Shown here piece after piece: positions 31,524 to 36,788 of a stretch of DNA of 56,113 bases; the stretch's first letter is position 1, and each line of letters opens with the position of its first letter. The position numbers and the translations under genes were made by a program. The DNA lies in the IMG/VR virus record IMGVR_UViG_2923334124_000002. One strand, given 5' to 3'. The notes under the pieces are model-generated. The model had not been told where the DNA came from. It saw only the letters and a program-made list of their open reading frames with translations, and did no database searches. The DNA is from a virus. Taxonomy: Duplodnaviria; Heunggongvirae; Uroviricota; Caudoviricetes.

Positions 31524-32014
31524 GTATCCTCCGGATAATAAAAAGCCAGCTTAGTGCACTGAGTGCGGATATATTCCTGCGCCCCTTCCAGCTGCTTCTG
31601 CATTGTCATCAACCGTTCTCTGAGGATGAAATAATCCCGTTCAGCGGTGTCTGCCAGTCGGGGGCCGGTTGCATTATCCACGCTGGAGGTGCCGGTGGCT
31701 TCACGCACGGTACCGGGGCAGGTGGCGTTGACCCGCAGGCGCTTACGACCAGCGGCAACATCAGCGCGCAGAGTTTCATTTTCAGCTCTCGCATCGGCTA
31801 ATTCCTTCGTGTATCTGGCATCAAGCGCAGCGACATCTCGCTGGCGCTGCTGCATGTCAGTAATAGTGGCATTCGCCAGTTTCAGCTCACTGACTTTTTT
31901 ATCGCGCTGCGCTTTGTAGGTGATGGCGTTATCGCGGTAATGATTCAGCCCCAGACTAAGCACACCACAGGCTACCAGCATGACAATAATCACCACACAC
32001 AGAACACGGTTCAT
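31520..32014 (-). CDS. Rz: i-spanin Rz
   Basis: N-terminal TM segment, coiled coil, periplasmic Cys; contains embedded Rz1 frame. Confidence 0.8.
31609..31779 (-). CDS. Rz1: o-spanin Rz1 (lipoprotein embedded in Rz, +1 frame)
   Basis: [17 protein letters not shown] lipobox followed by Pro-rich segment. Confidence 0.65.
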
Positions 32015-32229
32015 ATCACCACCAACGGATTGCCCAGACCAGAACAGCAATGGCCACAATACGAATGGCAAATGCCATTGCCCGAATAAGTTCAGCACTC
32101 ATCTTTTTAAAGTTCACGATTTCAGCGCAATGACCAGTTTTGCCAGCCCATACAGCATCGGAGACACAGCAATACCAACAGCCACCCACTTAATAGCAAA
32201 AGCCAGCGCTCTGCTGATGTCATCAGTCA

Positions 32230-32364
32230 CTGTCACCCCAGCAGCCCCGACGAAGACAACATCACCCAGGCGAGGGACAGAAAAAGAGCAACCAGCATTA
32301 GTGAAAATGAAATACCGACAATCACACACAGGACCTTTGCCGGCGTTATGAGTTTGTCTGACAT
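32230..32364 (-). CDS. hypothetical small membrane peptide (44 aa)
   Basis: MSDKLITPAKVLCVIVGISFSLMLVALFLSLAWVMLSSSGLLG; SD AAGGGG 6 nt upstream; one predicted TM helix. Confidence 0.3.
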
Positions 32365-32366
32365 AG

Positions 32367-32462
32367 CTACCCCTTAATTGCCACAATTAACTGGGATACT
32401 ACCCATAAAAAAGGGATGCTCCAGACCAGCAAAAATTTCCAGTTTGGTAATTGACTAATCAT
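32367..32462 (-). CDS. hypothetical small membrane peptide (31 aa)
   Basis: MISQLPNWKFLLVWSIPFLWVVSQLIVAIKG; SD GGGAG upstream; hydrophobic. Confidence 0.3.
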   Translation of the reverse strand: MISQLPNWKFLLVWSIPFLWVVSQLIVAIKG

Positions 32463-32533
32463 GAGTCGCAACTCCCTAATCAGTTTGCTAAAATCAATCA
32501 AGGCAGCCTCCCATAGCTTACTGCCATAAAAAC

Positions 32534-32566
32534 AAAACCCCGCTTGCTGCCAACAAACGGGGTTTT
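32534..32566. terminator. bidirectional hairpin terminator (aaaaccccgcttgctgccaacaaacggggtttt) immediately after endolysin gene
   Basis: 9-bp GC stem with U-runs on both sides. Confidence 0.5.
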
Positions 32567-32656
32567 TACTTTTATTCACTTAGGTTTTGCCAGTTCACAG
32601 GACTTCGTGTTATCCGCCCGCGTTGGCCAACCTCATTTTTCAGCAAAATATTCTGC

Positions 32657-33190
32657 TTATCTGTCGATTCCCCAGCACGCCAGCGCGCTCTCCTGGTCAC
32701 GACGGAATACCTGACCGTAACAGTTATTTGAGCGAATACGGCAGTCTCTGCCACCGTCCTTAATCCACCAGCGAATCGCTTCGCATGCTCCCCTGCGATC
32801 ACCTGCATTAATTCGTCTGTAAAACGTCGACGGGAAACACTTACCGGGACCAATGTTGTACGGACAGAATGACGCGATCCCCGCTTTCTGGGGTTCGGTC
32901 AATGGCACTTTGATGTTTTTCTCCACCCATGCCAGCGCCTTATCACGCTCAATGGCGTTAACCCGGTCGCATTTTTCCTTCGACAACTTCATGCCCGGAA
33001 CGACAGGTTTGCCATCCACCAGGATGGCACCGCGGCAGATGGTCCAGATACCCGCGCCATCACGGTATGCCGTGGTGTGGTTACCTTCCTTTTCATCCAG
33101 AAACTGGTCGAGAATGTCAGGCGCAGGCGCACCAGCGGCAATCAGCGCCAGAACGGCAGCCGACAGGCCGTATCTGATTTTTGCGTTCAT
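32657..33190 (-). CDS. R: SAR endolysin (phage-21 R-type lysozyme with signal-anchor-release N-terminus)
   Basis: 177 aa; hydrophobic Gly/Ala-rich N-terminal segment LSAAVLALIAAGAP; lysozyme motifs E..EG...TAYRD.AG.WTIC.G. Confidence 0.85.
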   Translation of the reverse strand: MNAKIRYGLSAAVLALIAAGAPAPDILDQFLDEKEGNHTTAYRDGAGIWTICRGAILVDGKPVVPGMKLSKEKCDRVNAIERDKALAWVEKNIKVPLTEPQKAGIASFCPYNIGPGKCFPSTFYRRINAGDRRGACEAIRWWIKDGGRDCRIRSNNCYGQVFRRDQESALACWGIDR

Positions 33191-33358
33191 GGATATTTAT
33201 CAGGATTTATCGGTTTCTGAGCCCTGGATATGTTTATCAGTTCCAGCCTGTTGCCTCAGGCTGCTAACAGGTCGTAAGCGTAAACTGACCGCCGTATGTA
33301 GCCATCAGACGAGAATTGGTAACTTAGACGCCCATCTGATATAGACGGACATCTAAGT

Positions 33359-33784
33359 ATGGAATTACAGGACTGGCGAAAAGAACCTCGTAAAAACTAT
33401 TCGAATGAATTCAAACTTCGTATGGTGGAACTGGCATCACAACCTGGAGCTTGTGTTGCACAGATTGCACGTGAAAATGGCGTCAATGATAATGTTATTT
33501 TCAAATGGCTCAGGCTCTGGCAGAACGAAGGGCGTGTTTCGCGGCGTCTTCCGGTAACGACCTCTTCTGACACTGGCGTTGAATTATTACCTGTAGAAAT
33601 AACGCCGGATGAGCAGAAAGAACCTGTGGCGGCCATTGCGCCGTCTTTATCCACTTCCACTCAGACCAGAGTCAGTGCCAGTTCCTGCAAGGTGGAATTC
33701 CGTCACGGTAACATGACGCTGGAAAATCCATCGCCAGAGCTGCTCACAGTGTTGATCCGTGAACTGACCGGGAGGGGAAGATGA
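33359..33784 (+). CDS. tnpA: IS66-family accessory protein TnpA (orf1)
   Basis: 141 aa; HTH; first ORF of IS66-type element. Confidence 0.8.
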   Translation: MELQDWRKEPRKNYSNEFKLRMVELASQPGACVAQIARENGVNDNVIFKWLRLWQNEGRVSRRLPVTTSSDTGVELLPVEITPDEQKEPVAAIAPSLSTSTQTRVSASSCKVEFRHGNMTLENPSPELLTVLIRELTGRGR

Positions 33785-34131
33785 TCTCACTCCCATCAGG
33801 TACCCGTATCTGGCTCGTTGCCGGCGTTACCGATATGCGTAAATCCTTCAACGGACTGGGAGAACAGGTACAACATGTGCTGAATGATAATCCCTTCTCC
33901 GGTCACCTGTTTATCTTCCGTGGCCGACGGGGTGACACCGTCAAAATTCTTTGGGCTGATGCTGATGGTCTGTGCCTGTTCACCAAACGCCTGGAGGAAG
34001 GCCAGTTTATCTGGCCTGCGGTACGTGACGGCAAGGTATCCATTACCCGCTCGCAACTGGCAATGCTCCTCGATAAGCTGGACTGGCGTCAGCCAAAAAC
34101 ATCCAGCCGTAACTCACTGACAATGTTGTAA
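33781..34131 (+). CDS. tnpB: IS66-family accessory protein TnpB (orf2)
   Basis: 116 aa; conserved IS66 Orf2 pattern; overlapping stop/start with orf1. Confidence 0.85.
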   Translation: MISLPSGTRIWLVAGVTDMRKSFNGLGEQVQHVLNDNPFSGHLFIFRGRRGDTVKILWADADGLCLFTKRLEEGQFIWPAVRDGKVSITRSQLAMLLDKLDWRQPKTSSRNSLTML

Positions 34132-34161
34132 AAAACTCCTGACCGCATTATAAAAACGGTC

Positions 34162-35775
34162 ATGAGTCAGAAATACCTCATTCGCATCGCAGAGCTGGAA
34201 AGGTTGCTCTCTGAGCAGGCTGAAGCCCTCCGTCAGAAAGACCAGCAACTGAGTCTGGTTGAAGAGACGGAAGCCTTCCTGCGCTCTGCACTGACACGTG
34301 CCGAAGAAAAGATCGAAGAAGATGAACGGGAAATAGAACATCTGCGGGCTCAGATAGAAAAACTGCGCCGGATGCTGTTCGGTACCCGTTCTGAAAAACT
34401 GCGTCGTGAAGTTGAACTGGCTGAGGCTCTGCTGAAACAACGTGAACAGGACAGCGATCGTTACAGTGGGCGGGAAGACGATCCTCAGGTTCCCCGCCAG
34501 TTGCGACAGTCGCGCCATCGTCGTCCGTTACCGGCACACCTTCCCCGTGAAATACACCGCCTGGAGCCAGAAGAAAGCTGTTGCCCGGAGTGTGGCGGTG
34601 AGCTGGATTATCTGGGGGAAGTCAGCGCTGAACAGCTGGAACTGGTGAGCAGTGCCCTGAAAGTGATCCGCACAGAACGGGTAAAAAAAGCCTGTACAAA
34701 ATGTGACTGTATTGTTGAAGCACCGGCGCCGTCCCGCCCGATAGAGCGTGGTATCGCGGGCCCCGGATTACTTGCCCGCGTGTTAACGGGAAAATACTGC
34801 GAACATCTGCCACTGTATCGTCAGAGTGAAATCTTTGCCCGCCAGGGTGTCGAACTGAGCCGGGCCTTACTCTCCAACTGGGTTGACGCGTGCTGCCAGT
34901 TAATGACACCGGTGAATGATGCCCTGTACCGTTATGTAATGAACACCCGCAAGGTTCACACTGATGACACACCGGTAAAGGTACTGGCACCGGGTCAGAA
35001 AAAGGCGAAAACAGGGCGTATCTGGACGTATGTCCGGGATGATCGCAATGTGGGTTCGTCATCTCCTCCAGCGGTCTGGTTCGCGTACTCGCCGAACCGG
35101 CAGGGGAAACACCCGGAGCAACACCTCCGCCCCTTCCGGGGTATCCTGCAGGCGGATGCGTTCACAGGTTACGACAGGTTGTTCAGTGCAGAACGTGAAG
35201 GTGGTGCACTGACAGAAGTTGCGTGCTGGGCCCATGCCCGGCGAAAAATCCACGATGTATACATCAGCAGCAAAAGTGCGACGGCAGAAGAAGCCCTGAA
35301 GCGAATCAGTGAACTGTACGCCATCGAGGATGAAATACGGGGATTACCGGAGTCAGAGCGTCTTGCCGTCAGGCAGCAGCGAAGCAAAGTGTTACTGACG
35401 TCGCTGCATGAATGGATGGTGGAGAAGAATGGTACGCTGTCGAAAAAATCCAGACTGGGCGAAGCGTTCAGCTATGTACTGAATCAGTGGGATGCCCTCT
35501 GTTATTACAGTGATGACGGTCTGGCGGAGGCGGATAATAATGCTGCGGAAAGAGCGCTTCGTGCAGTCTGTCTCGGAAAGAAAAACTTTATGTTCTTTGG
35601 CAGCGATCACGGCGGCGAGCGTGGAGCACTGTTGTACGGGCTGATCGGCACCTGCCGTCTGAACGGTATCGATCCGGAAGCGTATCTGCGCCATATCCTG
35701 AGCGTACTGCCGGAATGGCCTTCCAACCGAGTTGACGAACTCCTGCCATGGAACGTAGTACTCACCAATAAATAA
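34162..35775 (+). CDS. tnpC: IS66-family transposase (TnpC)
   Basis: 537 aa; leucine-zipper N-terminus, zinc-ribbon CPECGG, DDE core. Confidence 0.9.
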   Translation: MSQKYLIRIAELERLLSEQAEALRQKDQQLSLVEETEAFLRSALTRAEEKIEEDEREIEHLRAQIEKLRRMLFGTRSEKLRREVELAEALLKQREQDSDRYSGREDDPQVPRQLRQSRHRRPLPAHLPREIHRLEPEESCCPECGGELDYLGEVSAEQLELVSSALKVIRTERVKKACTKCDCIVEAPAPSRPIERGIAGPGLLARVLTGKYCEHLPLYRQSEIFARQGVELSRALLSNWVDACCQLMTPVNDALYRYVMNTRKVHTDDTPVKVLAPGQKKAKTGRIWTYVRDDRNVGSSSPPAVWFAYSPNRQGKHPEQHLRPFRGILQADAFTGYDRLFSAEREGGALTEVACWAHARRKIHDVYISSKSATAEEALKRISELYAIEDEIRGLPESERLAVRQQRSKVLLTSLHEWMVEKNGTLSKKSRLGEAFSYVLNQWDALCYYSDDGLAEADNNAAERALRAVCLGKKNFMFFGSDHGGERGALLYGLIGTCRLNGIDPEAYLRHILSVLPEWPSNRVDELLPWNVVLTNK

Positions 35776-35835
35776 GCGTCAATACGGTGCTCCGTTGACG
35801 CTTACAACAGGTCAATACAATCATGAGGATTATTT

Positions 35836-36422: not shown

Positions 36423-36638
36423 TTACTCTCCCCGTGCCGCCTTACGACGGTCCTCTCTGATTTTGAAATACAGGTTAGTCAGATATGTCAGCAGCCCAAA
36501 CAGCAGACTCCCCAGCACGCCTATTGCCGCCCACTGAGACGGGGAAACCCTGTCCAGCAACTGCAGGAACCAGTAGCCCGTTCCCACCGCTGACGTGGTG
36601 TATGACACACCTGTTGTGATTTTTTCCATCTGGTACAT
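36423..36638 (-). CDS. S: class II holin / pinholin (phage 21 S21-like) with dual start
   Basis: 71 aa; ...[51 protein letters not shown] closely matches remembered S21. Confidence 0.8.
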
Positions 36639-36788
36639 ACCCCGTCTCCCGTTATCCGGAAGCTGACAACAATAAAAAAAGCCACCAGTTAAGTACTGAT
36701 GGCTCTGATAACTCATGCAGGCATCTCAGACGACCCACTGACACTACCGGTGAGTTTAACGATACCTTCCATTTGACTGGCTCACTTT

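Follow-up and report, generated by a model that had tools for sequence, protein, structure and literature searches.

What fills the space between an endolysin gene and an i-spanin gene where the two would usually abut? The question arises from a tailed-phage record of IMG/VR (Caudoviricetes; IMGVR_UViG_2923334124_000002), a stretch of 56,113 nucleotides (nt) referred to here as the window, in which the endolysin gene R ends at position 32657 and the i-spanin gene Rz begins at 32014, leaving an intervening gap of 642 bp (32015..32656). An earlier reading of the letters alone (the sequence-only reading) had remarked that about 640 bp separate two genes that are normally neighbors, and this was borne out, the homologous genes of the K-12 Qin prophage, rrrQ and rzpQ, being overlapped. 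The gap opens with a conserved leader of about 90 nt, followed by a terminator and four small open reading frames (ORFs), A, B, C' and D, and all of these features share the minus strand with R and Rz. We conclude that the ORFs are very probably genuine, mobile and selected genes for small membrane peptides, C' possibly being a relic.

Four small reading frames and their families

The first frame past the terminator, ORF-A (32367..32501, minus strand), encodes 44 amino acids (aa; MIDFSKLIRELRLMISQLPNWKFLLVWSIPFLWVVSQLIVAIKG) from a TTG start behind GGGAGG (32512..32507). It is followed by ORF-B (32233..32364, minus strand; 43 aa, MSDKLITPAKVLCVIVGISFSLMLVALFLSLAWVMLSSSGLLG), whose ATG lies 2 nt past the stop of A and behind AAGGGG, and by ORF-C' (32114..32236, minus strand), with 40 aa from a GTG that overlaps the TGA of B (GTGA) or 38 aa from the next GTG. 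ORF-D (32016..32102, minus strand; 28 aa) starts with an ATG 11 nt past the stop of C' and stops 1 nt ahead of the ATG of Rz, whose ribosome-binding site lies within the last codons of D. The four ORFs are packed in the manner of translational coupling. Each peptide contains one hydrophobic window of 18 residues (mean Kyte-Doolittle hydropathy 1.86-2.82), in agreement with the single transmembrane (TM) segment that the sequence-only reading had ascribed to two of them, and the charge of the N-terminal flank is +2 to +4 in full-length A, C and D. The limits given in that reading needed partial revision: the 31-aa ORF at 32367..32462 exists, but the start of family A lies 13 codons earlier (TTG 32501) and the gene has 44 aa; an ORF of 44 aa at 32230..32364 is real, with 43 aa and the coordinates 32233..32364; the GTG-started frame of about 38 aa exists (38 aa from the second GTG; the frame runs 32236..32114 from the first); and a 27-aa frame said to overlap the Rz start is likewise real, with 28 aa and an end that does not reach the ATG of Rz.

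All four ORFs match PHROG profiles, in each case of families of 'unknown function', and the exact 642-bp array is covered to at least 80% in 586 of 5426 complete E. coli genomes (part of the gap is present in 2067), so that they can hardly be chance open frames. The RefSeq entry of strain JJ1887, which is 100% identical here, shows hypothetical proteins at B, at D and at C' (the last called with 51 aa) and nothing at A. Sequence comparison places A to D in three independent small-protein families, namely A, B, and C/D as paralogs. ORF-A matches phrog_6632 (E 1.4e-13 for the long form, at positions 1-43 of 45; E 6e-5 for a 31-aa form), and ORF-B, which is RefSeq WP_001280935.1, matches phrog_4906 (E 4.5e-21, positions 7-49 of 49). 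Both C' and D match phrog_1115/4493/3246, the C' region with 1.7e-24 to 1.9e-27 and D (RefSeq WP_032140280.1) with 3.8e-6. The paralogy of C and D is seen in alignments of the 60-aa C with the 50-aa D (z 18) and with the 28-aa D (z 5.2), and the 60-aa C and 50-aa D have in common the motif M.KYKR..LRL...AFAI(K/R).VA.

Coding constraint was measured as pN/pS by pairwise Nei-Gojobori comparison, with frameshifted and misregistered sequences filtered out (ranges are bootstrap intervals). It is strongest in family C (0.18, 0.10-0.35, with 0.88 and 6.3 in the off-frames), followed by D (0.33, 0.17-0.56; off-frames 0.81 and 1.46) and B (0.54, 0.33-0.87; off-frames 0.77 and 1.15). For family A the ratio is 0.21-0.34 within E. 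coli subtypes (off-frames 0.74-2.21) and 0.41 across E. coli, Salmonella and Enterobacter (off-frames 0.78 and 1.85). In all families the proposed frame has the lowest ratio, which shows purifying selection in that frame. Two longer frames over C' were rejected, the 51-aa version that PGAP starts at TTG 32269 and a 90-aa ORF (32114..32386) of the length of phrog_3246: in both, the part that overlaps B has a pN/pS of about 1.1 and is noncoding there. A 123-aa ORF on the plus strand (31980..32351), antisense to D, C' and B, was treated as an artefact and not as a gene. The frame antisense to B is free of stops in all B variants, presumably because the sense frame makes little use of the codons TTA, CTA and TCA. 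Likewise not retained was the idea that B is a duplicate of the N-terminal TM domain of Rz, with which it has VLCV...MLVA in common (z 3.2, p about 0.012 uncorrected; not significant).

For family A, the long 44-aa form is the gene, because its N-terminal extension is constrained and homologs of 44-45 aa are annotated in other genera; such homologs occur in five genera and are annotated in Providencia, Citrobacter, Enterobacter and Klebsiella. The first 13 codons have a pN/pS of 0.44, with a pS of 0.24 vs 0.75 for the rest of the gene. These codons (32499..32462; homologs L010, L247, L248, L249 and L252) hardly vary in nucleotide sequence between Escherichia, Salmonella, Enterobacter and a Pseudomonas phage, with a rare CGA Arg codon fixed, suggesting an overlapping RNA-level or initiation signal, possibly for a start at Met14. 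An internal ATG (32462, Met14) is conserved, preceded by GGAG/GAGG, and would give the 31-aa form; for this reason two isoforms of A, by analogy with holin/antiholin pairs, are a possibility. The N-terminus, predicted to be cytoplasmic and amphipathic (DFSKLIRELR.M), is highly conserved and sits on a variable anchor.

Exchange among prophages and the origin of the array

Architectures were compared in 120 IMG/VR contigs picked via an 18-nt motif of the post-R leader. Most common were R>A>Rz (27), R>C>B>Rz (22) and the type of the window, R>A>B>C'>D>Rz (about 22), followed by R>Ant>B>Rz (about 13; Ant is an antirepressor gene), R>D>Rz (8), R>C>E>D>Rz (4) and rarer combinations. Intact arrangements in related E. 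coli prophages include R>A>B>Rz, R>C>B>Rz with a C of 60 aa, R>D>Rz with a D of 37-50 aa, R>C>E>D>Rz with a C of 47 aa, and R>A2>Rz, together with R>Ant>B>Rz in Shiga toxin (Stx) phages. A TM-like ORF ends at most 30 nt ahead of Rz in 70 of the 79 unique gaps, and the breakpoints of the modules coincide with ORF boundaries, at the ATG of B (32364) and at its stop (32233). The comparison shows that prophages exchange the families in the form of whole-gene modules. Alignment to related prophages, which the sequence-only reading had proposed as a check, revealed no fusion of the frames: the ORFs recur separately, in differing orders, as intact small genes, which supports the option of a set of small membrane peptides, with C' as a 5'-truncated 60-aa gene and D as a short form. 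A separate search for family B returned 80 loci, nearly all with the architecture of the window. When the leader motif was scanned over one genome per species, 29 of the 30 hits were chance matches in unrelated taxa and only an Escherichia contig was relevant. Two contigs with R>Ant>B>D cassettes (L135 and L148, IMG/VR) carry an unassigned ORF of 263 aa between D and Rz, another sign of the R-Rz joint accepting cargo.

The array of the window can itself be traced to two cassettes. The match to an R>A>B>Rz cassette is unbroken to the last base of the B stop (32233), and that to an intact R>C>D>Rz cassette takes over at 32232 with 97% identity; where B stands in other surroundings, the matching sequence starts with its ATG (32364). 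These breakpoints show the array to be a recombinant: its A-B block stems from an R>A>B>Rz cassette and has displaced the 5' end of the C gene of an R>C>D>Rz cassette, which makes C' an N-terminally truncated copy of the 60-aa C. The displaced part comprises 88 nt, i.e., the ribosome-binding site and the first 22 codons, and the joint lies at a short motif (ACTGATGA) that is also present at the native B-Rz junction. C' is without the basic N-terminal segment that gives full-length C its N-flank of +3, and one phage has a frameshifted C'. The 28-aa form of D, ATG included, is found again behind each of C, E and B, and because of these three upstream contexts it looks like an established short form of the 50-aa paralog.

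The families differ in their spread. Family A lies between endolysin and i-spanin genes in phages of E. coli (H-19B and many Stx1 and Stx2 phages among them, mostly without annotation), in Salmonella SPN3UB, and in prophages of the Enterobacter cloacae complex. The Enterobacter cassettes contain Phage_holin_8, Phage_holin_3_7, a GH19 endolysin without a TM domain and overlapped spanins of 92 aa and 61 aa, and these holins, endolysin and spanins are unrelated to those of the window. A profile search of 1.84 billion representatives recovered only 38 clusters of family A. Family B has 103 relatives in E. coli, nearly all of 43 aa, and the length stays at 43 codons down to about 62-65% identity; it immediately precedes Rz in 276 phage records, the greater part of which are Stx phages and where it is mostly unannotated, and also does so beside an M15 peptidase endolysin. 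Family C is found between lysozyme and Rz genes in Salmonella, and in Salmonella contigs (L245/L246, 2489..2701) a homolog follows a DUF4376 gene of the tail region. In one E. coli contig of IMG/VR, the C gene forms a single reading frame with a long open stretch of non-C sequence that we guess to be tail-fibre-assembly-like. A further single-TM peptide of 49 aa, E (MIKAETTSQGADDAAKIIAVCRGIRHILTPVAWIICTALVAYTTIYLNR), occurs between C and D in L009 (NZ_CP148583.1) and in the IMG/VR contigs L134, L144, L163 and L177, and had no match in PHROG, Pfam or PADLOC.

Terminator, leader and the surrounding lysis cassette

The terminator is intrinsic (32524..32566, minus strand), with a 15-pair GC-rich stem (32566..32534) and a T-run (TTTTGTTTTT), and lies about 90 nt past the stop of R and about 25 nt ahead of the ribosome-binding site of ORF-A. 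The sequence-only reading had called it bidirectional, which holds for its form, but the sense direction is much stronger: the hairpin on the strand of the lysis genes has -25 kcal/mol (z -4.4; none of 200 shuffles was as good), and that on the opposite strand -15.6 kcal/mol (z -2.1). A hairpin with a T-run occupies the same position in all gap variants, with stem sequences of three different kinds. In every context examined (Salmonella SPN3UB, a Salmonella prophage, Enterobacter prophages, the baseplate operon of Salmonella phage SEN34 and the tail region of Pseudomonas phage YMC11/02/R656), the homologs of A or C come after a GC hairpin, a T-run and then a leader whose end, GGCAAGGGAGAAC, is followed by the start codon. 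Because the same layout recurs in these several settings, the portable unit is terminator, leader and ORF together. In SEN34 (L247, 1995..2132), the terminator-leader-A module stands inside the baseplate operon, and in YMC11/02/R656 (L248, 1998..2287) it stands in the tail region, where A is followed by a 38-aa single-TM ORF (gp057), forming a second cluster of tiny hydrophobic ORFs.

A search for sense-strand sigma-70 promoters between the terminator and the ORFs, made on the window and on the common variants of the gap, found no match of at least 9 of 12 positions. The gap of the L009 type (NZ_CP148583.1) has perfect TTGACA and TATAAT hexamers just after the terminator, but these are only 13 nt apart, and a promoter between terminator and first ORF was rejected on both counts. 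We infer that the terminator shields the peptide gene from stray transcription in the lysogen, and that expression would then hinge on antiterminated late transcription, as one would expect of a product required only late or damaging if made sooner.

The flanking genes make up a lysis cassette of the phage-21 type, consisting of an S21-type holin, a DUF1327 gene, a SAR-like endolysin, the gap and Rz/Rz1. R (32657..33190, minus strand) encodes a lysozyme-family endolysin of 177 aa (PF00959, E 9e-24; phrog_7, endolysin), and its Ala/Gly-rich hydrophobic N-terminus suggests the SAR type, with Ala, Gly and Ser making up 50% of the N-terminal window (LSAAVLALIAAGAPAPDI). The i-spanin gene Rz (31520..32014, minus strand; 164 aa; PF03245, E 4e-51; phrog_13) contains the gene of the o-spanin lipoprotein Rz1 (31609..31794, minus strand; 61 aa; PF06085, E 1.7e-21), and the phage-21-type holin S (36423..36716, minus strand; PF04971) is followed by the DUF1327 gene. 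Within this cassette, the R-Rz gap is most readily read as a mosaic accessory slot. An IS66-family element (33274..35805, plus strand), which has three ORFs (HTH_Tnp_1, TnpB_IS66 and DDE_Tnp_IS66) and has given rise to an 8-bp target duplication, sits 76-83 bp ahead of the start of R, and the whole cassette downstream of it may be silenced in the window; strain JJ1887 carries the same prophage without the insertion. Rz has a C-terminal tail (31520..31560) that is absent from relatives of 153-156 aa, and the ORF after it (71 aa; 31308..31523, minus strand) matches phrog_2571 only at positions 100-165 of 291, suggesting a further recombination joint or a truncation immediately downstream of Rz.

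Proposed lysis control and its alternatives

We propose, with a probability of roughly 0.4 to 0.5, that the peptides act in lysis control, as late-expressed and terminator-insulated peptides of the inner membrane. In the lysogen the terminator would keep them silent; upon induction, Q-modified RNA polymerase would pass the terminator, and A to D and Rz would be translated from one late mRNA. The peptides would then enter the inner membrane with their N-termini inside, as neighbors of the pinholin, the endolysin and the i-spanin, where they might tune the timing or the efficiency of envelope disruption. The recurrent position between endolysin and spanin argues for a role in lysis that is independent of one specific holin or endolysin. 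The partner of A would more likely be the membrane or a host factor than one particular lysis protein of the phage, because A accompanies unrelated holins, endolysins and spanins; its company with unrelated holins was also counted against a holin-specific (antiholin) partner.

Several observations weigh against a role in lysis. Homologs of A and C also occur outside lysis cassettes and an antirepressor gene occupies the same R-Rz slot in Stx phages, so that this position may be only a permissive insertion site. Family B is limited to phages of E. coli and Shigella and is under weak selection (pN/pS 0.54), and C', having lost its native start and being frameshifted in one phage, may be a relic. 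In the window, the IS66-family element splits the cassette, with R, the small ORFs and Rz/Rz1 on one side and the DUF1327 gene, the S21-type holin and the late promoter on the other. Phage lambda lyses its host without such genes, and the small ORFs cannot be essential because lambda and the K-12 Qin prophage do without them. A literature search by phrase, accession and peptide string found no paper on these ORFs.

Comparison with known families and systems gave analogies only. The peptides and their full-length relatives had no Pfam hit at E <= 1-10, and thus none to a holin, antiholin, type I toxin or DUF2730 family; NCBIfam and PDB sequence searches gave no informative match for the peptides, in PADLOC none of A, A2, B, C60, D50 and E matched a family at E <= 1, and Rfam had no antitoxin RNA, its only hit being at chance level (E 0.96). 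Of the labels used in the sequence-only reading, 'holin/antiholin-like' is plausible as an analogy only, whereas 'type-I-toxin-like' finds neither a Pfam family nor an antisense RNA nor an own promoter to go with it. The dual-start holin/antiholin pairs S107/S105 of lambda and S71/S68 of phage 21 are late inner-membrane regulators of lysis, and A resembles them in its two conserved in-frame starts, each behind a Shine-Dalgarno-like sequence, the longer form adding a charged N-terminal segment. It differs in having one predicted TM domain instead of two or three and in lacking any sequence or Pfam relation to them, and its isoforms are hypothetical. Antiholins inhibit their cognate holin by binding it and tend to be either isoforms with an N-terminal extension or separate proteins (T4 RI, P1 LydB); the possible dual start of A is the one trait here that recalls them. 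The releasin gp25 of phage Mu (DUF2730) is a small, membrane-tethered accessory protein of the lysis cassette with a cytoplasmic functional part (PMC9239132), as is predicted here; it works with SAR endolysins, and its family also accompanies cytoplasmic endolysins (PMC9239132). However, gp25 has an N-terminal TM domain and a larger cytoplasmic domain, whereas A, C and D (28-60 aa) are predicted to have a cytoplasmic N-terminus and a C-terminal TM domain, show no DUF2730 match and belong to a cassette with its own pinholin-type holin. LydC and LydD of phage P1 are accessory holin-like proteins that were experimentally shown to affect lysis (PMC9025707); as extra small membrane proteins that cooperate with a SAR endolysin and adapt lysis to host and conditions, they have the kind of role proposed here, although they share no homology with the present peptides. 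The nearest functional analogies are accessory membrane proteins of lysis, i.e., Mu releasin, P1 LydC/LydD and the dual-start antiholins.

The alternative that survives best, although we consider it rather unlikely, is that the ORFs are moron-like cargo, portable accessory genes in permissive joints of the late operon with a role outside lysis, e.g., in superinfection exclusion at the inner membrane or through another effect on the host membrane. It draws on the homologs of A and C in the baseplate and tail regions of SEN34, YMC11/02/R656 and a Salmonella contig, on the 38-aa TM peptide adjoining A in the Pseudomonas phage, on the acceptance of an antirepressor gene at the R-Rz joint and on the travel of the module with its own leader. 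A precedent counted in its favor is gp15 of HK97, reportedly a membrane-protein moron in the tail operon that blocks DNA entry. Morons and gp15 resemble the present ORFs as portable single-gene insertions at late-operon joints, some of them small inner-membrane proteins, each with a terminator hairpin. The classic moron of lambdoid phages, however, consists of a sigma-70 promoter, a single gene and an intrinsic terminator in this order and is expressed in the lysogen, whereas the order here is terminator, leader, gene; the ORFs are insertions between conserved genes, but with the terminator upstream and no promoter found. Exclusion would require expression in the lysogen, which is at odds with a terminator directly upstream and no promoter after it, PADLOC gave no hits, and the endolysin-to-spanin position of A recurs in three genera with unrelated lysis genes.

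Lower still is the chance that the ORFs are translated filler, kept mainly because unbroken translation and coupling across the foreign DNA would sustain the expression of Rz/Rz1, with peptides of little activity and C' and D as remnants; we regard this as improbable. The very tight spacing, with the ribosome-binding site of Rz in the last codons of D, would be expected of such filler, as would the ...IRWW-stop junction, which is shared by two different ORFs that lead into it (A2 and D), and the truncation of C', its frameshift in one phage and the weak selection on B point the same way. Against it stand the amino-acid constraint in C (0.18), D (0.33) and A (0.41), the strong cross-genus motifs and the 28-aa D with its ATG in three different upstream contexts; moreover, R and Rz can abut, so that no filler is required.

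It is very improbable that the ORFs are type I toxins, i.e., membrane-toxic peptides each curbed by a cis-encoded antisense RNA. They resemble Hok, Ldr, TisB and Ibs in size and hydrophobicity, and a promoter-like site on the plus strand (32358..32387; 9 of 12 positions with TG) faces the terminator and could yield an RNA of about 180 nt antisense to ORF-A. However, this motif is confined to the A1>B lineage and is absent from the Enterobacter and SPN3UB homologs, and one such match per region is below the chance expectation of 2.3. Unlike type I toxins, the peptides match no toxin family in Pfam, Rfam yielded no antitoxin RNA for them, and an antisense promoter is not consistently present. 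Nor do they have an own sense promoter or a long 5' UTR, their genes being packed in an operon and coupled to Rz.

The other option of the sequence-only reading, a decayed gene of a multi-TM membrane protein broken by frameshifts, to which four adjacent hydrophobic frames on one strand and a 90-aa frame (32114..32386) over part of the region, catalogued as phrog_3246, had seemed to point, is refuted to within a very small residual chance, since no larger gene joining the frames was found among about 200 loci, 103 B hits, 121 C hits and 38 A clusters, the families being separate, differently ordered and each intact elsewhere, and since the 90-aa frame is without coding constraint over B.

A broader version of the lysis-control reading, which we hold to be doubtful, is that the module of terminator, leader and tail-anchored peptide (A, with B and C/D at the same site) is an unrecognised regular part of the lysis cassettes of enterobacterial temperate phages, carried by a large fraction of E. 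coli prophages and by most Stx phages but seldom annotated in databases, and that it sets the timing of lysis and hence of phage and Shiga-toxin release via a conserved cytoplasmic amphipathic helix acting on a host or membrane target, possibly with dual starts. The lambdoid lysis cassette is usually regarded as complete with S, R and Rz/Rz1, and a survey of 279 Stx phages gave it in this form, with these ORFs unmentioned (PMC8136144). The 'terminator-first' gene module is unusual, and even without a role in lysis the ORFs are a clear case of conserved small membrane-protein genes missed by annotation pipelines. If the peptides do shift the timing of lysis, they would represent a new class of small lysis regulators, and burst size and toxin release in pathogens would be affected.

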